A program made the translations under genes and the position numbers. DNA of 64,000 nucleotides, from NCBI GenBank assembly GCA_934293575.1, contig CAKQYU010000005.1, positions 46,147 through 110,146 of the forward strand, given 5' to 3'. Each line of letters opens with the position of its first letter. Within the stretch, counting starts at the first letter, position 1. Of the stretch, positions 8,407-19,703 are shown piece after piece. This DNA comes from an uncultured Lachnospiraceae bacterium. GTDB taxonomy: Bacteria; Bacillota; Clostridia; Lachnospirales; Lachnospiraceae. The notes below the pieces were generated by a model. It worked only from the letters and a program-made list of their open reading frames with translations. It had not been told where the DNA came from and did no database searches.

Positions 8407-10956
8407 ATGGACGGAAGAGTAATATGGAGAATTCTGGTTTTACTGATAATATTTGTTGCCACGATTTTTCTTGTAAATAAATTGGATAATGCAGGTGTGG
8501 AGGATGTTTCCATCGAGATGGAGCAGGCAACCCTTCCGATTGTGTATGTCAGATATAATGATGATTTTATAAATACACTGCACGGATATACGGGTAAGGT
8601 AGATACAACCTATTTTCGTGATACGATTACACCTATGGATTATGGAAGATCCATTGAGTTATGGGTGGATCAGACAAAGAAGAATTATTCCTCTTATGAA
8701 TATGAATTGCGTAGTCAGTATCAGGGAGATTTAATTGAGAATGGTGCAGTAACGGATATTAATCATGCAGATGGTTATGATAAAATGTCCATTTCTTTTC
8801 GTACGAAATTAGAGGAATTGCAGGAGTATGTATTAGTTATAAAGGCAATGGATGATAATGAGTCGGCGGTTCGTTATTATACAAGAGTTGTTGTGGAAAA
8901 TGATTTTCATGCACCGGCATTACTTGACTATGTAGAGGGATTTAATGATGCATTATTTGATAAGGATAAGGCGGAATCGTATATTACCAAAAGTATTGAA
9001 CCAAATGAAGACGGTAATAACGAATATCTGTCAAAAGTAAATATTCATTCCAGTTTTGATACGATTACATTTGCTGATTTGAATCCTACAAGAATAACAA
9101 AACCAATTCCGAGTATTAAGGAAATTGATGACAGTTATGCAATCATACAGCTAAAATATATGATTTCGGCAGAAGAAAATAAAGTAGTAGAAAATTATTT
9201 TGTGACGGAAGAGTACAGAGTGCGCTATGCGGGTGGGGATAATGTATATCTTTTGGATTATAACCGTTCACAGGAAGCAATGTTTACCATAGACAATATT
9301 GATGCAGCTTCCAATGTTTTCAAATTGGGAGTTTTAGAGGATGATAATTTCCAGTATAAAACAAGCTCAGACTCGAAGAAGGTAGCATTTACACAGGCAA
9401 GACAGTTGTGGTATTACGATTATGATGCCGGAACGATAACGAATGTTTATGGCTTTTATCAGAACGATAATTATACCGATGTTCGTGTGACTTACGATGA
9501 AAATAATATAAAAATTTTGCGGATGAACGATAATGGTAATATTACATTTGCTGTCTATGGTTATATGAACCGTGGTAAAAATGAAGGAAAAGTAGGAATC
9601 GGTGTTTATGAATTTAATGCCGAAAAAGATAAAGTACAGGAAGTTTTGTTTGTTGAAAACAATAAACCATATAATATTTTAAAAGAAGATATGGAGACGT
9701 TACTTTATCTGAATGATGATGGAGAGTTTTACTATTTTGATAATGATTGTGTTATAAAAATTAATACAAAAACCAGACAATCAGAGATTTTTATTGAAGA
9801 TGTATTAAATGAAAATCTGGCAGTTTCTCAGGATAATCATTTGATTGGTTATCCGGATGCATTGTTGACGGAAAATACAACCAAGATAACGGTTTATGAT
9901 TTGGATTCGAAGGAAAGCAGAGAAATTGATGCGAAGAGTGGTGAACGATTATCGGCAATCGGATTTGTAGAGAATGATTTGGTACTTGGAAGAATCCGGG
10001 AGGGCGATATTGTTGAGGCACTTGATAAAACCGTTACCTGTCCGGCATCAACGATAGATATTATTGATAAAAATAATAATGTTGTAAAAACATACGGAAC
10101 AACCGGTGTATATGTTACGGATGCGGTAGCAAAGGACAACGTCATTTATTTGAACAGGGTAAGAAAAATAAATGGTGGATTCGAAGAAACGACACAGGAT
10201 TTTATCACATATAAGGAAGAGGAAAACAAGGGATCGTTATCTGTCGTATATAAGAATACGGATAAAGGATATAATCAGTTATATATGACATTCCCTTCTA
10301 CTATTTTTGTATCAGCGAATCCAAAACTGATGATTACAAAGTCGGTTGTCAATGATGAAGATACAACTGTTAAGATTACATTTGATCACACAAATAAAAA
10401 ATATTATGCATATGGACAGGGAAAATATATGACAGATTATTTGAATCTGAATGCTGCTGTTCGTGCTGCATATGAAAATGCCGGTGTTGTATTGGATGAA
10501 AATGGTGTAATTGTATGGAGAAAGATTGCAGTTAAGGATTACCATACAGTTGCAGATAAGATTAAGATTCATACGGTGGAATCAATTGATGATACGCTGG
10601 GTGCATGTATTTACATGATGGGAGTTTATGAAGGTAAAACACCTGACTATGCAGTTATGCAGCAAGAATTAAAAGATGCATCAAAGTCGATAGAAGATAT
10701 TATTCTGGAATATACGGGTCGTCAGGGAACGGATATTACGGGATGTGACTTTGAGAATGGATTGTATTATCTTTGTAAAGATGCTCCGGTTATCACAAGA
10801 TTTGCAGATGGAACCTATGTATTGGTTACCAGTTATAATGGAGAAAAGGTACGTTATATTAATCCGTTAGAACCGACCGATATTGTTGAATCGCGTGCAG
10901 AATTTGAAGAGAAGGTAAAGGATAGTGGTAATGTCTTTATCAGTTATGTAAGATAA
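8407..10956 (+). CDS. Large membrane-anchored or secreted hypothetical protein (849 aa)
   Basis: RBS aggag; N-terminal signal anchor ILVLLIIFVATIFLV; long Asn/Asp/Tyr-rich extracytoplasmic region; C-terminal segment containing LGACIYMMG. Confidence 0.5.
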   Translation: MDGRVIWRILVLLIIFVATIFLVNKLDNAGVEDVSIEMEQATLPIVYVRYNDDFINTLHGYTGKVDTTYFRDTITPMDYGRSIELWVDQTKKNYSSYEYELRSQYQGDLIENGAVTDINHADGYDKMSISFRTKLEELQEYVLVIKAMDDNESAVRYYTRVVVENDFHAPALLDYVEGFNDALFDKDKAESYITKSIEPNEDGNNEYLSKVNIHSSFDTITFADLNPTRITKPIPSIKEIDDSYAIIQLKYMISAEENKVVENYFVTEEYRVRYAGGDNVYLLDYNRSQEAMFTIDNIDAASNVFKLGVLEDDNFQYKTSSDSKKVAFTQARQLWYYDYDAGTITNVYGFYQNDNYTDVRVTYDENNIKILRMNDNGNITFAVYGYMNRGKNEGKVGIGVYEFNAEKDKVQEVLFVENNKPYNILKEDMETLLYLNDDGEFYYFDNDCVIKINTKTRQSEIFIEDVLNENLAVSQDNHLIGYPDALLTENTTKITVYDLDSKESREIDAKSGERLSAIGFVENDLVLGRIREGDIVEALDKTVTCPASTIDIIDKNNNVVKTYGTTGVYVTDAVAKDNVIYLNRVRKINGGFEETTQDFITYKEEENKGSLSVVYKNTDKGYNQLYMTFPSTIFVSANPKLMITKSVVNDEDTTVKITFDHTNKKYYAYGQGKYMTDYLNLNAAVRAAYENAGVVLDENGVIVWRKIAVKDYHTVADKIKIHTVESIDDTLGACIYMMGVYEGKTPDYAVMQQELKDASKSIEDIILEYTGRQGTDITGCDFENGLYYLCKDAPVITRFADGTYVLVTSYNGEKVRYINPLEPTDIVESRAEFEEKVKDSGNVFISYVR

Positions 10957-10967
10957 ATATAAGTAAA

Positions 10968-10999
10968 ATAAAAAAGGTGGCAACCGCCACCTTTTTTAT
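10968..10999. terminator. Bidirectional rho-independent terminator between convergent genes
   Basis: aaaaa-GGTGGC-aacc-GCCACC-tttttt: a perfect 6-bp GC-rich stem flanked by an A-run and a T-run. Confidence 0.6.
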
Positions 11000-11169
11000 T
11001 ACTCTTCAGAGATTACTCCTGTAGGGCATGTTCCTGCACATGAACCACAAGAAATGCATGTATCTGCATCGATTTCAAACTTGCCGTCGCCTTCAGAAAT
11101 AGCGCCAACAGGACAAGAACCTGCGCATGCTCCACATGATACACATCCATCATTAATAACAAATGCCAT
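10999..11169 (-). CDS. 2x[4Fe-4S] ferredoxin (56 aa), absent from the ORF track
   Basis: Hand translation of the minus strand gives MAFVINDGCVSCGACAGSCPVGAISEGDGKFEIDADTCISCGSCAGTCPTGVISEE, with two C-x2-C-x2-C-x3-CP motifs. RBS aggagga lies 6 nt upstream. Confidence 0.7.
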   Translation of the reverse strand: MAFVINDGCVSCGACAGSCPVGAISEGDGKFEIDADTCISCGSCAGTCPTGVISEE

Positions 11170-11279
11170 AGTAGATTCCTCCTTATAAAATTGTATATGT
11201 TATTCGTATATAGGTAAAATACCTTATTACAAATATTTTAAAACAAGTACTATTAGATAGCAAGTATTTTTTTGGATAC

Positions 11280-12038
11280 TTACTGTATGTTATCATCTTG
11301 TCTTCTGCGTTTCATAGCAGCTAAAATTACTTCTCTTGCATGGATAGCGGATTCTTTTGGTAAATCCTTCAGACCCTTTAATGGATAATCGATACCAAGT
11401 TTTTCATACTTCACAACACCCATTCCGTGATAAGGAAGACAATCCAAAGCCGTTATATTTTTGAATTGACCGATAAAATATCCTAATTGGTCAAGGTATT
11501 TGTCGTTTAAGGTAATTCCTTCCACAATGACATGACGAATCCAGGTATTAATATTTTTTTCGCTTAAATATTTTAAGAAATCTAAAATATTGTCATTTGG
11601 CTGCTGGCAAAGTTTCTGGTGTTCAACCGGATCGATATGTTTAATATCTAACATAACCAAATCGGTTACTTTCATCAGACGGTCAAATTTTTTGAGTAAC
11701 TCCGCATTCTCTCTGTGGAAAATAACACCGGAAGTATCTAAACAGGTGTGAATGCCTTTTTCTTTACAAGCTTCAAATAACTCAGTTAAAAAATCAATCT
11801 GAACGAGAGGTTCTCCTCCGGTAGCTGTAAGACCGCCATTTGCATAAAATGATTTCATGGATTCATATTGATCCAACAAATCTTTTACCGTGTGTTTTTC
11901 TGCACCTTCCATGCTCCACGTATCCGGGTTGTGGCAATATTTACAACGCATAGGACATCCCTTAAAAAATACGACAAATCGCATTCCCGGACCATCTACT
12001 GTTCCACATGTTTCAATTGAATGAATATATCCTGTCAT
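11280..12038 (-). CDS. pflA: Pyruvate formate-lyase activating enzyme (glycyl-radical enzyme activase, radical SAM)
   Basis: N-terminus GYIHSIETCGTVDGPGMRFVVFFKGCPMRCKYCHNPDTW (C-x3-C-x2-C). Confidence 0.9.
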   Translation of the reverse strand: MTGYIHSIETCGTVDGPGMRFVVFFKGCPMRCKYCHNPDTWSMEGAEKHTVKDLLDQYESMKSFYANGGLTATGGEPLVQIDFLTELFEACKEKGIHTCLDTSGVIFHRENAELLKKFDRLMKVTDLVMLDIKHIDPVEHQKLCQQPNDNILDFLKYLSEKNINTWIRHVIVEGITLNDKYLDQLGYFIGQFKNITALDCLPYHGMGVVKYEKLGIDYPLKGLKDLPKESAIHAREVILAAMKRRRQDDNIQ

Positions 12039-12164
12039 TTATTAATCCCTTTCTTTCCTAAATATATAATTTGTTTGTTGTTAAATATTATGTATAAAAC
12101 AATTGTGATTCTATTCAATAACACAAATAAATATTTTGTGTAAAAACAGTTATTTCTATTATTG

Positions 12165-12202
12165 ATTGAAAAGAAAGGCAAGGGCGAATAAATGCCCCTG
12201 CC
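12165..12202 (-). terminator. Terminator after the glycyl-radical ORF on the minus strand
   Basis: Minus-strand hairpin GGCAGGGGC-atttattc-GCCCTTGCC followed by tttcttttc. Confidence 0.45.
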
Positions 12203-12241
12203 TATATAGTTTGATTTGTAGTTATTCAAAAACTTCTTAGA

Positions 12242-12481
12242 TTACATAGACTCATGGAATGTTCTTGAAATAACGTCTGCCTGCTGCTCTGGTGTTAACT
12301 TAACGAAGTTAACAGCATATCCAGATACACGGATTGTTAACTGTGGATAGTTCTCCGGATGTTTCTGAGCATCAATTAATGTTTCACGGTTTAATACGTT
12401 AACATTAAGATGATATCCACCTTTTTCTACATAACCATCTAACATATTTACTAAGTTATCTACCTGCTGTGTACTAGCCAT
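12242..12481 (-). CDS. Stand-alone glycyl-radical domain protein (GrcA/YfiD-like; equivalent to the C-terminal ~70 aa of PFL)
   Basis: [66 protein letters not shown] contains the RVSGY glycyl-radical motif. Own RBS aaggagga 7 nt upstream. Confidence 0.8.
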
Positions 12482-12513
12482 TTTATTATCCTCCTTATCA
12501 AAATTATACCGGA

Positions 12514-12729
12514 TTAATCTTCGTGTAACTCTTCGTCCATGCCCTCCATTAAAGTAGGAACACTACATGCAAGGTCACCCTTTGCACAATCAAGACATCC
12601 AAGAGTTTCTTCTGTTTTTTCTCCGGCTGCAACGGTATCGTCCACGGACACATTAATGTGTCCATGTCCGTTTGTAACCATATCATCTAACATTGCAACA
12701 ATGTCATCTACTTGATCTTTGTCTGTCAT
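12514..12729 (-). CDS. Cys-containing acidic small protein; diverged partial paralog of the glycyl-radical domain N-terminus, lacking the radical glycine
   Basis: [29 protein letters not shown] parallels [29 protein letters not shown] of the downstream ORF. It then diverges into [14 protein letters not shown]...EELHED. RBS ggagg 8 nt upstream. Confidence 0.5.
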
Positions 12730-12769
12730 ACTAAAACCTCCAAGCTAAACATTGTTTGAACAATCATTA

Positions 12770-14812
12770 TTATTTGTTAAGATCGATTTCGATATCTCCT
12801 GCAAATACCTGATCTTCTTTACCAAGAGCACCTGGAACGATAGAGAATGTATTTGAAATACCATCCTGAGCGTCTCTGAAAGGAATCTTAGCTACAGAAG
12901 AAAGTGATGCTACTGCACCATGAGTATCTCTCTTATGAAGTGGGTTAGCACCTGGAGCAAATGGTGCACCATGCTTACGTCCACAAGGAGTATCACCTGT
13001 ATTCTTACCATATGTTACGTTTGAAGTAATTGTAAGGATTGACTGTGTAGGGATACCATTACGATATACATGCTGCTGACGAAGCTTATCCATAAATGTT
13101 GTAACGATGCTTGTAGCAATTTCATCTACACGGTCATCATTGTTACCATATTTAGGGAAGTCACCCTCTGTCTCGTAGCTTGTTACGATACCCTGCTCGT
13201 TACGAATAACTTTAACCTTAGCATACTTGATAGCTGATAATGAGTCAGCAACGATTGAAAGACCAGCAACACCTGTTGCGAAGTATCTCTTTACGTCTCT
13301 GTCATGTAATGCCATCTGAATTCTTTCATAAGCATACTTATCATGCATATAGTGGATAATGTTAAGTGCGCTAACATAAACTTTAGCTAACCAATCCATC
13401 ATATCGTTGAACTTATCCATTACATCATCATAGTCAAGGTAGTCACCTTCAACCGGACGATACTTAGGTCCAACCTGAACACCTGTACACTCATCAACAC
13501 CACCGTTGATAGCGTAAAGTAAACATTTAGCTAAGTTAGCACGAGCTCCGAAGAACTGCATCTCTTTACCAATAACCATTGAAGATACACAACAAGCAAT
13601 ACCATAATCATCACCGTGAAGAGGTCTCATTAAGTCATCGTTCTCATACTGGATAGAAGAAGACTTGATAGACATCTTTGCACAGAACTGCTTCCATCCA
13701 AGTGGAAGTTTCTTTGCCCAAAGAACAGTCATGTTTGGCTCTGGAGCTGCACCTAAGTTATTTAATGTATTAACGAAACGGAATGACATCTTTGTTACTA
13801 ATGTACGTCCATCAACACCCATACCACCAAGAGACTCTGTTACCCAAACTGGGTCACCAGCGAAGATCTGGTTGTACTCTGGTGTACGTGCAAACTTAAC
13901 GCAACGTAACTTCATAACGAAATGATCGATGAACTCCTGAATCTGCTCTTCTGTAAACTTGCCGGCAGCTAAATCTCTTTCTGCATATACATCAAAGAAT
14001 GTAGATGTACGACCAAGTGACATAGCAGCACCGTTCTGCTCCTTAACTGCTCCAAGGTATCCGAAGTATGTCCACTGGATAGCTTCCTGAACGTTAGTAG
14101 CTGGCTTAGAAATATCAAATCCATAGAATGAAGCCATCTTTGTTAATTCTTTAAGAGCCTTAATCTGCTCTGCGATTTCTTCCTTACCACGGATAACATC
14201 ATCTGTGTAAACCTTACCGAAAGATTCCTTCTGAGCTAATTTATCTTCAATTAATCTATCTGTACCATAAAGAGCAACTCTTCTGTAGTCACCAATGATA
14301 CGTCCACGTCCATAAGCATCAGGAAGACCTGTTACGATATGATTTGTACGGCATTTTCTGATTTCTGAATCATATACATCGAATACACCTTCGTTATGTG
14401 TCTTTCTATGTTTTGAGAAGAAATCAACAACTTCAGGATCTACTGTATATCCGTTATCTTCACAAGCTTTCATAGCCATACGAAGACCACCGTATACATT
14501 CATACCTCTCTTGAAAGGCTTGTCTGTCTGGAAACCAACGATAGTTTCTTTGTCCTTATCAAGATATCCTGCACCGTGTGAAGTTAAAGTAGAAACAACC
14601 TTAGTATCCATATCAAGAACACCGCCAGCTTCTCTTTCCTTCTTTGTTAAATCCATAACTTCAGCCCACAAATCTTTTGTGTTCTGAGTAGGTCCTGCTA
14701 AGAAACTATCATCACCTTCATATGGAGTATAGTTCTTCTGAATAAAGTCACGTACGTCGATAAATTTCTCCCAGTTACCGCCGTTGAAACCATTCCATGC
14801 TTCTGATTTCAT
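12770..14812 (-). CDS. pflB: Pyruvate formate-lyase catalytic subunit, naturally truncated before the glycyl-radical domain (680 aa)
   Basis: Collinear with E. coli PflB from the N-terminus (VRDFIQKNYTPYEGD...GLPDAYGRGRIIGDYRRVALYG) through the active-site region. It ends at ...GDIEIDLNK, about 70 residues short. RBS ggagga. Confidence 0.9.
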   Translation of the reverse strand: MKSEAWNGFNGGNWEKFIDVRDFIQKNYTPYEGDDSFLAGPTQNTKDLWAEVMDLTKKEREAGGVLDMDTKVVSTLTSHGAGYLDKDKETIVGFQTDKPFKRGMNVYGGLRMAMKACEDNGYTVDPEVVDFFSKHRKTHNEGVFDVYDSEIRKCRTNHIVTGLPDAYGRGRIIGDYRRVALYGTDRLIEDKLAQKESFGKVYTDDVIRGKEEIAEQIKALKELTKMASFYGFDISKPATNVQEAIQWTYFGYLGAVKEQNGAAMSLGRTSTFFDVYAERDLAAGKFTEEQIQEFIDHFVMKLRCVKFARTPEYNQIFAGDPVWVTESLGGMGVDGRTLVTKMSFRFVNTLNNLGAAPEPNMTVLWAKKLPLGWKQFCAKMSIKSSSIQYENDDLMRPLHGDDYGIACCVSSMVIGKEMQFFGARANLAKCLLYAINGGVDECTGVQVGPKYRPVEGDYLDYDDVMDKFNDMMDWLAKVYVSALNIIHYMHDKYAYERIQMALHDRDVKRYFATGVAGLSIVADSLSAIKYAKVKVIRNEQGIVTSYETEGDFPKYGNNDDRVDEIATSIVTTFMDKLRQQHVYRNGIPTQSILTITSNVTYGKNTGDTPCGRKHGAPFAPGANPLHKRDTHGAVASLSSVAKIPFRDAQDGISNTFSIVPGALGKEDQVFAGDIEIDLNK

Positions 14813-15159
14813 TATAAATTTCCTCCTTTTAAAATAAAATATTTGTGAAATTCATCTTATGTGTGTAAGTATCCACCCAATACAGAATGCTTAAGGAAAA
14901 TATTTACAGATTCCTGATGAAATTCTCATGGTTTCATTATAGTTTTTTATTGTATACAAGTCAACGGAAATTCCCTGCAATTCTTGTATTTTTTCTGGTA
15001 CAAAAATGAGAAAAAGAAATGTAAAATTTATAAAAAATTAAAGAAAAATCAGTATTTTGAGAAAGAAAAAATTGTATACACAATATGTAGGGTTTTGTTA
15101 AAATCGTATCTATGATACAATGAAGAATTGTGAAAAGAATGATTGATTAGGGTAAAGAA

Positions 15160-15972
15160 ATGGGAATGCAGCAGGATATTACAAAAATTGAAAACGGAAC
15201 GGAAAAAATAGAGAAAAAAGAATATCTGGGTAATCGGAACCTGTATCATATTTATCTGCCGGAAAGTATTTTGATGTTAGAGGACTGGTGCTTTGCACAC
15301 TGTAAGAATCTGCAGACGGTGTGGATGCCGCGAAAGGTGGTATTAACAGGAAGGGATGTTTTCCTTGGCTGTGATAAGCTTTCCAATGTATATATCTATG
15401 ATAAGGAATATATATATGAAGAATTTTCGGAAAATCTGGCATTTGGAATAAAGAATTTTTTGAAAGGTGAACGATTTGATCTTTCAGTATATGGAACGAC
15501 GGAATGGTTTTGTCAATATGATGAACAGTTGGCAAAGTATATAAATGAGCCGGATGAGGCAAACTTTGAACCATTTCTGGCGGGTGGGGAAGAAGATTAT
15601 GAAGATCCTTCCAATAATATAGAAAGTTTTTGCCGGCAAAAAAGAACGAACAAAATAAAAGGAATTTTTTTCAGGCTGAGAGTAGAAAATAAAGACAGAG
15701 TGACCGGAAAAATTGATTCGGACAGAAAAAAGGATTGGGTTTCCTATATAAAACAGAATGAAAAAGAAACATTGGAATTTTTGAAGGAAAGAAAAGAAGA
15801 AGCAGTTACCTATTTTAAAATAATGAAAGAAGAACGTATTTTGGCTGCCGGGAATATTTCATATTTTATTGATGGGATGGCGGGCCCGGCATTTACGGAA
15901 AGTAAGGCCTATCTGTTAAAAGAGCAGGAAAACTTATCGGTGGAAGATGTGTGGAAGCAGTTTCAGATATGA
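15160..15972 (+). CDS. Hypothetical protein with a BspA-type leucine-rich-repeat-like motif
   Basis: IYLPESILMLEDWCFAHCKNLQTVWMP resembles BspA-type LRR units; the rest is uncharacterised. First gene of a tightly packed 4-gene cassette. Confidence 0.45.
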   Translation: MGMQQDITKIENGTEKIEKKEYLGNRNLYHIYLPESILMLEDWCFAHCKNLQTVWMPRKVVLTGRDVFLGCDKLSNVYIYDKEYIYEEFSENLAFGIKNFLKGERFDLSVYGTTEWFCQYDEQLAKYINEPDEANFEPFLAGGEEDYEDPSNNIESFCRQKRTNKIKGIFFRLRVENKDRVTGKIDSDRKKDWVSYIKQNEKETLEFLKERKEEAVTYFKIMKEERILAAGNISYFIDGMAGPAFTESKAYLLKEQENLSVEDVWKQFQI

Positions 15973-15983
15973 AGGGAGCTGTC

Positions 15984-17294
15984 ATGGAAGAAAAGACAGA
16001 AAAGCAGGAAAGAATAACTGAATATGCAAGGAAAATAATGAATCTGGCAAGGGATACCATTACGGTGCGTTTTCGTTTTTTTGACCGGGCATTGACAAGG
16101 CTGGAAAGTATCGAAAAGCCGGGAATCGGTGGATTTGTTACGGATGGGAATCATCTTTTTTATGATCCGGCGGCACTGTTGGTTACTTATTTGGAGGAGC
16201 CCAATGTTGCGGTGCGGGCATATCTGCATGTGTTAATGCATTGTGTGTTTTATCATTATTTTTCCGTAGAAAATAAAAATCCGGAATATTGGAATCTTGC
16301 GGTTGATATTGCAGTGGAAAATATTATTCTGGATTTGGATTTGTCGGCGGCGGCTTTGTCAAAGGATGGAGAAATAAAAGATCAGCTTCGCAAAATCCGA
16401 AAGTGGGTGCCGGAACTGACCGCTGAAAAGATATATCGAGAATTTATGGTTCACGGATTGTCGAGGGATGCACAAAGAACATATCAGAGATTGTTTACCG
16501 TGGATGTGCATGATATATGGTATCAAAAATCGGATCGTCCGACGGAAGAAATTATAATTACACAAAATCAATGGAAACAGATTTCGGAACGAATTAAAAC
16601 GGAACTGAAGACCTTTACAAAAAATCAGGAAGGAATGGATGACTTTCTGGGTAATTTAGAGGAAGCTACGAAGCAACGGTATAATTATGAGGAGATTTTA
16701 GAACGGTTTTCCGTAACTGGGGAAGAGATTGCAATAAATGATGATGAGTTTGATTACATTTATTATACATACGGATTGCAGACTTACGGAAATCTTCCGT
16801 TGATTGAACCGTTAGAATATAAAGAGGTAAAGAAGGTTCGGGAATTTGTGATTGCGATTGATACTTCCGCATCCTGCAGAGGCGATATCGTTAAGGGATT
16901 TTTACAGGAAACATATGAGATATTGAAAAAAAGCGAGAATTTTTTCCATAAAATCAATATCCATATTATTCAGTGTGACGCAACGATTCAGTCAGACACC
17001 CTTATTACCGGGGATGAAGATTTTAAACAGTTTATAAAAAACGGGAAATTGAACGGGTTCGGGGCAACGGACTTTCGACCTGTATTTTCTTACGTCGATA
17101 CTTTGTTGGAAGAAGGTGCATTTGAAAACTTAAAAGGTTTGATTTATTTTACGGACGGTTACGGAATATATCCGGAACGAATGCCGGTTTATGATGTGAT
17201 ATTTGCATTTTTAAATGAAGATAAAAACCGCCAAAAGGTTCCGGGATGGGCAATGGAAGTGATATTAGAGGAGGACAGATATGAATATAAATGA
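15984..17294 (+). CDS. VWA-domain protein with N-terminal putative metallopeptidase-like domain (DUF2201-like); partner of a MoxR ATPase
   Basis: C-terminal VWA with MIDAS-like motif VIAIDTSASCRGD...GATDF...YFTDGYG; N-terminal HVLMHCVFYH. The start is taken at MEEK (RBS aagggag); the track's GTG at 15951 is possible. Confidence 0.6.
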   Translation: MEEKTEKQERITEYARKIMNLARDTITVRFRFFDRALTRLESIEKPGIGGFVTDGNHLFYDPAALLVTYLEEPNVAVRAYLHVLMHCVFYHYFSVENKNPEYWNLAVDIAVENIILDLDLSAAALSKDGEIKDQLRKIRKWVPELTAEKIYREFMVHGLSRDAQRTYQRLFTVDVHDIWYQKSDRPTEEIIITQNQWKQISERIKTELKTFTKNQEGMDDFLGNLEEATKQRYNYEEILERFSVTGEEIAINDDEFDYIYYTYGLQTYGNLPLIEPLEYKEVKKVREFVIAIDTSASCRGDIVKGFLQETYEILKKSENFFHKINIHIIQCDATIQSDTLITGDEDFKQFIKNGKLNGFGATDFRPVFSYVDTLLEEGAFENLKGLIYFTDGYGIYPERMPVYDVIFAFLNEDKNRQKVPGWAMEVILEEDRYEYK

Positions 17295-18777
17295 AGCAAA
17301 GGATTATATTAAACATTCTATACAGGTATACTTAAAAAAGGATGAATTCGGAGATTATAAGATACCGGTTGTGAGACAGCGTCCGATTTTTCTGCTGGGA
17401 GCACCCGGAATCGGTAAAACCGCAATTATGGAACAGATTGCACAGGAAATGGGAATTGCATTGGTTTCGTATTCTATGACGCATCATACAAGACAGTCTG
17501 CGCTTGGTCTGCCGTTTATTAAGCAGAAGGAGTATGGGGGAAAGATATATGATGTATCGGAATATACCATGAGTGAAATTATTGCATCTATATATGAAAC
17601 GATGGAGCAAAGCGGCGTTAAGGAAGGCGTATTATTCTTAGATGAGATTAACTGTGTTTCGGAAACGTTAGCACCATCGATGCTTCAATTTCTGCAATAC
17701 AAAGTGTTTGGCAAGCATAAAGTGCCGGAAGGGTGGGTAATTGTGACTGCCGGAAACCCACCGGAATACAACAAATCGGTTCGGGAATTTGATGTGGTTA
17801 CAATGGATCGTCTTAAGGTATTATCGGTTGAAGCAGATTATAAAACATGGAAAATATATGCACAGGAAAAGGGAATACACGGAGCAATCCTGAATTTTCT
17901 GGAGCTGAAAAGAGATTATTTTTATCATATGGAGACAACCGGAGCGGGACGTTCTTATGTAACGGCAAGAGGATGGGAGGACTTATCACAGGTCATTCTT
18001 TTGTATGAGGAGGATGGACTGAAGGTTGATGAGACATTATTTTCCCAGTATCTGCAAAATGAAAAGATAGTAAAAGAATTTGCGGCTTATTATGATTTAT
18101 ACAATAAATATAAGCAGGATTATCAGGTCGAAGAGTTATTAAACGGTCATATAAAAGAGGAAGCGGTTATAAAAGCGCAGAAAGCATCTTTTGATGAGCG
18201 GTTATCTTTGCTTGGGCTGTTACTTGATAAGATGCAGCTGGAAATGAAGGATGTAATGGAAATGTCAGCCTATCTGTCAGATTTGATGATACCGTTGAAG
18301 GCAATAAAGGGAGCAGATTCCGTATATGAAATGCTTCCGGTGCAGGAAGAGGCAAGAGAAACATATCTTAAAAATCTGGAAAGCGCAAATTCGTTATCAA
18401 CAGAGGAGCGCAGAAAACAAAAGCGGATTCAGGCTTTTTTGAAAACGGTCAGAAAGGAAATAACAGAACAAAATATTGCAGATGGGCAGGAAGCATTTTC
18501 CTATATAAAAGAAAAATTTGACAATCAGGTTGCTGATATGAAAAAGAAGGTTGAAACGACAGGCAGGCGTCTGCATGCAATGTTTGAATTTGCGGCAAAG
18601 GCATTTCAGGAGGGGAATGAAATGCTGGTGTTGGTAACGGAACTTACCGTAAATAAATACAGTTCCCGCTATATCAGTATGTACGGATGTGAGGATTATC
18701 AGAAGTATAACCGTTTGTTGATGGTTTCTGACAGAAAAGAAAACCTGAAGGAAGAGATTAAAGATTTGATTTTGTAG
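17281..18777 (+). CDS. MoxR-like AAA+ ATPase
   Basis: Walker A LLGAPGIGKTA, Walker B VLFLDEIN, sensor region VIVTAGNPPEY. Start overlaps the upstream stop (ATGA). Confidence 0.7.
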   Translation: MNINEAKDYIKHSIQVYLKKDEFGDYKIPVVRQRPIFLLGAPGIGKTAIMEQIAQEMGIALVSYSMTHHTRQSALGLPFIKQKEYGGKIYDVSEYTMSEIIASIYETMEQSGVKEGVLFLDEINCVSETLAPSMLQFLQYKVFGKHKVPEGWVIVTAGNPPEYNKSVREFDVVTMDRLKVLSVEADYKTWKIYAQEKGIHGAILNFLELKRDYFYHMETTGAGRSYVTARGWEDLSQVILLYEEDGLKVDETLFSQYLQNEKIVKEFAAYYDLYNKYKQDYQVEELLNGHIKEEAVIKAQKASFDERLSLLGLLLDKMQLEMKDVMEMSAYLSDLMIPLKAIKGADSVYEMLPVQEEARETYLKNLESANSLSTEERRKQKRIQAFLKTVRKEITEQNIADGQEAFSYIKEKFDNQVADMKKKVETTGRRLHAMFEFAAKAFQEGNEMLVLVTELTVNKYSSRYISMYGCEDYQKYNRLLMVSDRKENLKEEIKDLIL

Positions 18778-18806
18778 TTTGAAATAAGATTAAAGAGAGG
18801 TCAAAG

Positions 18807-19703
18807 ATGACATCATTTGAAATAGAAGCAGGCGATTATAAACTGACATATAAAATAGGAGAAAACGGCGCAGTTGTTACAGATATAAGAGGAAATGGAA
18901 GTGTGCTGGACATTCCGAAAGAAATTATCTGCAAAGACAAGCCATATTTTATATGTGAAATTGCAAAAAAGGCGGCACTTGCCTGTAAAACATTAAGAGA
19001 TGTAAGGATTCCGGAAACGGTCACGAAAATTGGAGATTGGGCATTTGCGCAATGCGGGCAGCTGGAATGTGTCAGTATTCCTGCCGACATTTTGCTTGGA
19101 GTCGGAGTATTTGAAGGTTGTCAGCATTTGTACCGGATACGGATACAGGGGAAGGATGAGGATACTTTGCCAAGATTGCTTGCCTGCTGTGTTACAGAAT
19201 TTCAAGCGGAAGATTTGATTGGTGACAATGGAGCGGGACAGGATGACTGGTATGAAAAATGGGATCAGAGATTACTTTCTTTTTTGCAGGAGGCCGATGA
19301 GGAAGGCTATCAGACGATGGTTTTGTGCGGAGAGGAGGATATACGAAAGGATATTCCGCAATATGTCATGGAACGTAAGATGGATAAATGTGACCTGTGT
19401 ATGACAAGACTTTTTCATAAGAAGGGTTTGTCAGAGGATATGGAAAATCGGATTACGGAATATATTTTACGGCATATAAAAGGATGTGAACAGGAAGCCG
19501 CATGGGAACTTATGAAAGGGAGATATGGCAATCATTTGGAATACTATGAATTGTTGGCGGATATCGGTGGTATTACAAAGGATAATATTGAAGCCATGAT
19601 AGAAGATCTGGATGAAAAACATGCGGAGGCAAAGGCATATTTAATTCAGTACAAGCAGGGACATTTTGGGGTAGAGGATGTTTTTGCGGGATTTGAGTTG
19701 TAA
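18807..19703 (+). CDS. Hypothetical protein, paralog of the 15160 ORF (shared LRR-like motif)
   Basis: IPETVTKIGDWAFAQCGQLECVSIP parallels LPESILMLEDWCFAHCKNLQTVWMP. Confidence 0.45.
   Translation: MTSFEIEAGDYKLTYKIGENGAVVTDIRGNGSVLDIPKEIICKDKPYFICEIAKKAALACKTLRDVRIPETVTKIGDWAFAQCGQLECVSIPADILLGVGVFEGCQHLYRIRIQGKDEDTLPRLLACCVTEFQAEDLIGDNGAGQDDWYEKWDQRLLSFLQEADEEGYQTMVLCGEEDIRKDIPQYVMERKMDKCDLCMTRLFHKKGLSEDMENRITEYILRHIKGCEQEAAWELMKGRYGNHLEYYELLADIGGITKDNIEAMIEDLDEKHAEAKAYLIQYKQGHFGVEDVFAGFEL

Follow-up and report, generated by a model that had tools for sequence, protein, structure and literature searches.

We examined the pyruvate formate-lyase (PFL) locus in a 64,000-nucleotide stretch of DNA from an uncultured Lachnospiraceae bacterium (contig CAKQYU010000005.1 of assembly GCA_934293575.1, positions 46,147 to 110,146 of the forward strand; hereafter the window, with positions counted from its first nucleotide). 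Among glycyl radical enzymes, PFL is the most widespread, and the step that it catalyzes is central to fermentation in the gut and rumen. In the window, the catalytic body of the enzyme and the segment carrying its RVSGY glycyl-radical loop are encoded by separate genes, with a third small gene lying between them. The locus consists of five co-oriented genes on the minus strand that encode, in order, a 680-amino-acid (aa) PFL core, a 71-aa protein, a 79-aa protein, the activating enzyme PflA, and a ferredoxin. These genes and the elements within them that bear on the analysis are as follows:

12770-14812, minus strand: PFL catalytic core, 680 aa, with AGGAGG upstream
13589-13594, minus strand: catalytic Cys407-Cys408 pair within ACCVSSM (residues 406-412), read from the sequence and equivalent to E. 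coli C418/C419
12773-12829, minus strand: conserved C-terminal tail of the core, ALGKEDQVFAGDIEIDLNK, then TAA TAA TGA; nearly invariant across the Lachnospiraceae loci
12514-12729, minus strand: 71-aa gene, a paralog of the radical subunit that is truncated and has an acidic, Cys-rich tail; own GGAGG site
12640-12729, minus strand: residues 1-30 of the 71-aa protein, homologous to the helix and β10 strand that open the radical subunit (hhalign and the GrcA3 hidden Markov model, HMM)
12535-12600, minus strand: residues 44-65 of the 71-aa protein, a motif with invariant C45, C48, and C55 (invariant columns among 77 sequences)
12242-12481, minus strand: radical subunit GrcA3, 79 aa, comprising a helix, the β10 strand HLNVNV, the RVSGY loop, and a C-terminal helix; AGGAGG ribosome-binding site
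12320-12322, minus strand: Gly54 codon; this RVSGY residue is the predicted site of the glycyl radical and corresponds to E. coli G734 (sequence and PflB alignment)
11280-12038, minus strand: pflA, PFL-activating radical-SAM enzyme, 252 aa; CPMRCKYC at residues 28-35
10999-11169, minus strand: 2x[4Fe-4S] ferredoxin, 56 aa, Pfam Fer4 families

The 680-aa protein matched the Pfam PFL-like family at residues 19-602 (E 2.3e-214) and scored 1085.5 bits on TIGR01255 (cut-off 994.2), but this match covered only model positions 1-665 of 744. Its alignment with E. coli PflB was collinear with residues 9-681, in agreement with an initial annotation made from the DNA alone, which had described a PflB-like product ending before RVSGY. 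The gene closes with AAA followed by the triple stop TAA TAA TGA. The Cys-Cys pair, whose E. coli counterparts have a described role in PFL (PMC13450708), was invariant in an alignment with the cores of Atopobiaceae. The core covered only positions 1-51 of the 106 in the Pfam Gly_radical profile, and three elements are missing from it: β10, the Gly loop, and the C-terminal helix. The RVSGY motif is found on the separate 79-aa protein. That protein covered Gly_radical positions 50-106 and TIGR01255 positions 665-744, so that the two products tile the PFL model. It aligned with E. coli PflB 683-759, RVSGY included, and with GrcA 68-127, and its gene has its own AGGAGG site; the initial annotation was thus correct in assigning the missing segment to an independently translated open reading frame (ORF). 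The break had also been placed before the glycyl-radical domain. It does precede the RVSGY loop, but it lies inside the Pfam Gly_radical domain, at about profile position 50 and at about E. coli residue 682/683.

The 79-aa protein satisfied the model NF038360, "autonomous glycyl radical cofactor GrcA3," with 161.1 bits against a cut-off of 158 over model positions 2-78 of 78, and its close homologs carry the name GrcA3 in GenBank (NCBI). In contrast, it did not pass the GrcA2 model or the GrcA model TIGR04365 (102.7 bits compared to the required 170, with only positions 66-126 matched). Residues 20-79 correspond to GrcA 68-127, whereas residues 1-19 correspond to the PflB helix 683-692 and not to the N-terminus of YfiD; with 79 aa in total, the protein lacks the N-terminal region of about 60 residues that is present in GrcA. 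An exhaustive search of protein representatives with the 79-aa query returned mostly fragmentary metagenome ORFs of mixed lengths. In all 80 of the Lachnospiraceae loci described below and in the Atopobiaceae loci examined, the GrcA3 gene adjoined a PFL core without the radical loop. That adjacency to a radical-less core is a trait of GrcA3 is our reading of the family's genomic context and not the curators' definition. The protein encoded after GrcA3 has the features of a PFL-activating enzyme, namely a score of 281.3 bits on TIGR02493 (cut-off 231.75), Pfam Radical_SAM and Fer4_12 matches, and a CX3CX2C motif. The ferredoxin gene downstream of pflA was found in about half of the related loci, and its 56-aa product is a candidate for the physiological electron donor of PflA. 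The reductant of the E. coli activase is flavodoxin.

The separate genes are not peculiar to one assembly. The identical 680-aa protein was indexed in 44 blocks of public assemblies, and 24 of the 24 contigs that were read (gut metagenomes, including Hadza samples) had the same 680/71/79/252/56 gene order. For a comparison across species, the 71-aa family served as the query against a set with a single genome for each species. It matched 130 genomes, of which 80 were kept for examination. These are of Lachnospiraceae type (Coprococcus sp. metagenome-assembled genomes (MAGs), Eubacterium ruminantium ATCC 17233 and FB3002, Lachnospiraceae bacteria YSB2008 and C6A11, Clostridium sp. CAG:590, and Wujia sp.). 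The initial annotation had suggested such a comparison of pfl loci, and it revealed three ORFs in 80 of the 80 genomes: a core that is about 679-688 aa long and closes with a separate stop codon, then the small gene, then a radical-domain gene of 79-82 aa. The intergenic gaps ranged from 7 to 227 nt and from 0 to 130 nt, all three relative reading frames occurred among the loci, and between 2 and 16 in-frame stops, never fewer than 2, separated the core from the radical gene. Shine-Dalgarno motifs preceded all three genes in nearly all loci, with AGGAGG or GGAGG before the GrcA3 gene in 81/81 and a match before the 71-aa gene in 75/81. By the method of Nei and Gojobori, at synonymous divergence (dS) of about 1, the ratio of nonsynonymous to synonymous substitution rates (dN/dS) was 0.08 for the core (55 species), 0.09 for the 79-aa gene, and 0.14 for the 71-aa gene, consistent with purifying selection on each.

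Because the gaps vary, all frames occur, and every locus has 2-16 in-frame stops, these data exclude read-through, frameshifting, and a recent pseudogene. No intein family was matched, since the small ORFs hit no Pfam family except Gly_radical, which speaks against trans-splicing to a single chain. An assembly artefact, a pseudogene, programmed recoding, or trans-splicing was conceivable a priori, and the core is locally disrupted in two of the loci; nevertheless, the identical sequence in many independent assemblies, the triple stop at the end of the core, and the ribosome-binding site of each gene leave explanations of this kind effectively refuted. A natural, conserved split of PFL is strongly supported, and the earlier judgment that this is no simple frameshift artefact holds for all 80 species-level genomes; an assembly artefact is likewise rejected. 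The two disrupted cores belong to MAG loci, one with a frame change near residue 572 (L018:8-2034) and one with a duplicated or inserted segment near residues 279-295 (L025:1707-3901); both are probably MAG assembly errors rather than biology.

A split gene need not mean a split enzyme, as GrcA3 could be a mere spare part for a full-length PFL encoded elsewhere while the 680-aa core decays or is repurposed. The NCBI name "autonomous glycyl radical cofactor" does imply a GrcA-like role, and the search for a second PFL-sized ORF with PFL features, which found none, was confined to the 64-kb window. We nonetheless consider this explanation very unlikely. The core has intact catalytic residues and the low dN/dS of a constrained gene, it always adjoins GrcA3, and the break occurs at one point in two phyla. 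Furthermore, GrcA3 is devoid of the long GrcA N-terminus and falls far below the GrcA cut-off, and the helix that it carries ahead of β10 would be needed only by a core truncated at about residue 682. With no place for a glycyl radical on the core, and with strong purifying selection acting on it beside GrcA3 and PflA, we consider it very probable that the split is obligate. The initial annotation had the enzyme relying on an in-trans radical domain; the lack of a glycyl-radical residue in the core was confirmed directly, and the reliance itself would follow from that lack. The advantages that it suggested, namely that a module damaged by oxygen could be replaced cheaply and that activity could be regulated through the supply of the subunit, would be conceivable consequences of such reliance.

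The initial annotation had treated the locus as a two-part system and had reported that the DNA between the core and radical genes held no displaced PFL-like sequence. The core and radical subunit stood up as parts of the system, but positions 12514-12729 turned out to be a third conserved gene, present between core and GrcA3 in 80/80 loci. Its 71-aa product shares homology with the 79-aa protein over residues 1-30 of each (hhalign probability 94.5%, E 7.6e-8), a segment equivalent to approximately E. coli PflB 676-710. The GrcA3 HMM matched the 71-aa protein at model positions 3-28 (E 0.0015), a weak match and the sole one in NCBIfam. Beyond residue 30 the two small proteins diverge, and the 71-aa protein has no RVSGY. 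The family comprises 151 homologs of 70-77 aa with 64-93% identity, all labeled "hypothetical"; no Pfam or PDB match was found, and comparison of the family profile with PDB sequences gave chance-level hits only. The protein is acidic (pI 4.05, 19 Asp plus Glu residues) and has three Cys, all invariant and located in its most constrained segment, residues 44-65 (ratio of nonsynonymous to synonymous differences per site, pN/pS, 0.12); His24 and several Asp are also invariant. The gene is conserved and unannotated, and it encodes a truncated paralog of the radical subunit. We also considered whether its tail is a frame-shifted copy of the 3' half of the GrcA3 gene and rejected this idea, as alignment scores equaled those of shuffled sequence and there was no DNA similarity beyond 10-mers.

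Small Cys-containing subunits are encoded beside the catalytic subunit of benzylsuccinate synthase (BSS; β and γ) and of 4-hydroxyphenylacetate decarboxylase (HPAD; γ), and they modulate the behavior of the radical domain. The 71-aa protein could likewise be a metal- or Fe-S-binding accessory subunit bound to the outside of the core and tuning radical-domain mobility instead of filling the β10 slot, a role that would make use of the three invariant Cys, the invariant His24, and the several invariant Asp and that would accord with the small Cys-rich regulators of radical domains known in other glycyl radical enzymes. We regard this as improbable. BSS β/γ and HPAD γ bind [4Fe-4S] clusters via four Cys, are not radical-domain paralogs, and have no sequence relationship to the 71-aa protein, which has three conserved Cys rather than the four per cluster and whose only relative in the family databases is GrcA3. 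In addition, His24 is inherited from the HLNVNV strand and need not be a ligand.

The same split was found in Atopobiaceae. The best PDB matches of the 680-aa core were 38lb_A (739 aa) and 38la_A (687 aa), both "formate acetyltransferase," with extra C-terminal residues that are not a radical domain. A search with the rebuilt 38lb sequence led to a native 718-aa protein, a member of whose 90%-identity cluster is annotated as Fannyhessea vaginae formate C-acetyltransferase. PDB 38lb and 38la represent the F. vaginae core with and without a Cys-rich tail, respectively, and the tail contains ...DFTIENKPDCACA.... Relatives of this core are the 693-723-aa "formate C-acetyltransferases" of Olsenella and Thermophilibacter. 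In the Atopobiaceae loci (L085:4001-6442 and L088:4001-6462, of Fannyhessea/Olsenella type; core proteins P0271, P0274, and P0380), the gene directly after the core encodes an 80-aa GrcA3, and pflA comes next. The F. vaginae-type GrcA3 is 74% identical to the 79-aa protein of the window and scores 166 bits on NF038360. The PFL of these bacteria is thus split like that of Lachnospiraceae, with an equal break point, the same GrcA3 N-terminus, the core tail motif VFxGD[IL][DE]xD, and the order core-GrcA3-pflA.

The core tail merits attention of its own. In Lachnospiraceae, the cores close with 13-15 residues, QVFAGD[IL][DE][IV]DL[SN]K, that are nearly invariant (loci L005-L084) despite replacing the canonical PFL sequence at this place, which suggests that the tail may have its own role, such as pairing with GrcA3 or the 71-aa protein. 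The Atopobiaceae have a similar counterpart, ...VFFGDIDLD..., but the two groups differ in what comes after it. The Lachnospiraceae cores end at ...DLSK or ...DLNK and a free, Cys-rich 71-aa paralog of GrcA3 is encoded instead, whereas the Atopobiaceae have no 71-aa gene and their cores run into a Cys-rich tail (...DIQIENPAPDCGCC, ...DFTIENKPDCACAAD..., ...DISIENAVDCACCAD...) with the pattern ...IENxxDC[GA]CC. The tail resembles the 71-aa protein in having a strand-like stretch, a DC-x-C motif, and an acidic end. For the F. vaginae core (P0271) including the Cys tail, an AlphaFold2 model reached a confidence (pLDDT) of 39.7, the alignment being too shallow. One further sequence, P0272 (821 aa), is a PFL core with an internal exact duplication of about 125 residues and the Cys-rich end ...LSFSLEPDCACCEP...; it probably represents a chimeric metagenome assembly.

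Because an identical fission occurs in two phyla together with a common GrcA3 N-terminus and core tail motif, the comparison points to a single origin of the fission that may have been followed by horizontal transfer between phyla. F. vaginae secretes formate, and the PFL inhibitor hypophosphite at 1 mM decreases this formate by about 90% (PMC12208373), which by analogy lends indirect support to the view that the split PFL may be a working enzyme. The split is not as new as the initial annotation had presented it: the two-part arrangement is already recognized in annotation through GrcA3 (NF038360), it extends to Atopobiaceae, and solved structures exist for the F. vaginae core. Our literature search (GrcA3, split or truncated PFL, and PFL of Lachnospiraceae or Atopobiaceae) found no description of GrcA3 or of a natural PFL split. 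The spare parts covered in a glycyl radical enzyme review of June 2026 are of the YfiD type only (PMC13450708).

The closest functional precedent is E. coli PflB with GrcA/YfiD (PDB 1H16 and 6OWR), where a small RVSGY protein also completes a PFL body without a usable radical domain and where the activase is of the same type. The systems differ in that the E. coli body arises by oxygen cleavage, whereas the split described here is genetic and constitutive, and in that GrcA3, unlike E. coli GrcA, brings the helix before β10 (as required by a break at about 682) and is without the disordered N-terminus of about 60 residues. With the radical in place, an engineered E. coli pair, tPFL(1-695) with truncYfiD(61-127), reaches wild-type-level activity (kcat 204 vs 105 s-1) (PMC8683613), and a natural split PFL is feasible because this pair is catalytically competent. 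Efficient binding and activation of YfiD in that system need PFL residues 696-733, a duplicate β10 region that the authors call the "recognition element," and free YfiD is not activated at all (PMC8683613). E. coli thus carries the duplicate β10 on the core, whereas the comparable element of the Lachnospiraceae locus is a separate protein of 71 aa. Phage T4 Y06I, a stand-alone glycyl-radical module that complements cleaved PFL (cited in PMC13450708), is likened to GrcA3 here by description and not by sequence; it differs in being phage-encoded, in acting on a full-length host PFL, and in lying outside an obligate split operon.

Taken together, these observations are probably best explained by a locus that encodes an obligately heteromeric PFL. 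The 680-aa core would contribute the substrate site and the Cys-Cys radical relay, and GrcA3 would dock onto it noncovalently, supplying the helix, β10, the Gly finger with Gly54, and the C-terminal helix. PflA would use S-adenosylmethionine to convert Gly54 of GrcA3 to the glycyl radical, probably with the co-encoded ferredoxin, and the radical would then drive the core to convert pyruvate plus CoA into acetyl-CoA and formate, as in one-piece PFL. The arrangement would be ancient and would have passed between phyla, as is suggested by the equal break point and shared GrcA3 family in Lachnospiraceae and Atopobiaceae.

The 71-aa protein may have a place in this cycle. As long as the core is free of the radical subunit, the protein could sit in its β10 slot, serving as a placeholder or recognition element that would stabilize the core and govern the loading and activation of GrcA3. 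Its homology to the duplicate helix and β10 segment and its strict linkage to the split operon favor such a role, which we put forward as a plausible but far from assured reading of the sequence. A more elaborate version is a three-component PFL, in which the helix and β10 mimic of the 71-aa protein plugs the socket of the core and is exchanged in a regulated, possibly redox- or metal-dependent manner for PflA-activatable GrcA3, with the fused Cys tail of Atopobiaceae as a functional equivalent; we offer this version only tentatively. The homology to the GrcA3 N-terminus also fits a negative regulator or redox switch, with the split PFL itself working as described above. Such a protein would use its helix and β10 to compete with GrcA3 for the core, and its Cys would detect oxidation, or would quench or shield the thiols of the active site, keeping PFL off or safe under oxygen or oxidants. 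The invariant Cys within the most constrained segment and the Cys-rich tails of Atopobiaceae at an equivalent place after the core agree with such a switch, as does the known problem in E. coli of keeping a free radical module from being activated when it should not be (PMC8683613). However, a pure inhibitor transcribed together with both of its targets, in an apparent single operon, would be less economical than an assembly factor; sequence alone cannot tell the switch from the placeholder. On balance a regulator of this type seems rather unlikely.

Several points weigh against the heteromeric assembly as proposed, and particularly against its third component. We infer complex formation, the activation of Gly54, and all roles of the 71-aa protein. 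The search that found no one-piece pflB was made in the 64-kb window. The E. coli recognition element is covalently part of the core and not a free protein. When compared with the Cys tails of Atopobiaceae, the 71-aa HMM gave about 0 bits, so that homology is not supported; because this similarity is not significant, a functional equivalence of protein and tails rests on motif-level resemblance. Lastly, AlphaFold2 modeled the 71-aa protein alone with low confidence (77-sequence alignment, pLDDT 62), showing only helix 4-19 and disorder elsewhere, which is compatible with folding on a partner but proves nothing.

Potential signals for transcription of the locus are listed next.

14936-14964, minus strand: σ70-like promoter match TTGACT-17-TATAAT upstream of the core gene, agreeing with the consensus at 11/12 positions
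12176-12203, minus strand: intrinsic-terminator-like hairpin and T run directly 3' of grcA3, with a 10-bp stem including 7 GC pairs, then TTCTTTTC
10967-11000, minus strand (T/A runs on both sides): terminator-like hairpin ending the pflA-ferredoxin unit, with a 15-bp perfect stem

Promoter-like sites in the region were no more numerous in total than in shuffled sequence, and the site at 14936-14964 is a consensus match only. Terminator-like hairpins with T runs numbered 7, compared to 2.0 expected. The hairpin at 10967-11000 sits between a convergent 849-aa gene and the ferredoxin gene and has the look of a bidirectional terminator. An Rfam scan of 10500-15500 gave only sub-threshold matches (sraA and STnc40) near 10913-11055, on this hairpin, and no riboswitch or leader. 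On the other side of the operon, a divergent plus-strand cluster at 15160-19703 contains genes for LRR_5 repeat proteins, for a DUF2201/VWA-like protein, and for a MoxR-type AAA ATPase. The cluster is conserved beside the pfl operon in the identical metagenome contigs and has no evident link to PFL.

The window is a further member of the GrcA3 split system, with a distinctive and unannotated third component. The split system is conserved in Atopobiaceae and, within Lachnospiraceae, in at least 130 genomes at species level, a natural arrangement that the work with cleaved or truncated E. coli PFL and YfiD only imitates. F. vaginae is associated with vaginosis, and PFL has been proposed as a drug target there. 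For annotation, the 71-aa protein is everywhere labeled "hypothetical," and the core is labeled an ordinary formate C-acetyltransferase even though it would appear unable to work alone. The system bears on two open questions about PFL, namely how the buried radical domain leaves the barrel to become accessible to the activase and how cells deal with cleavage of this domain by oxygen. Because the radical domain is here a free 9-kDa protein, its binding, activation, and exchange are measurable with separate components. One candidate for the "recognition element" that is missing here is the 71-aa paralog, and if the three-component reading is true, it would represent a new class of accessory subunit of glycyl radical enzymes.

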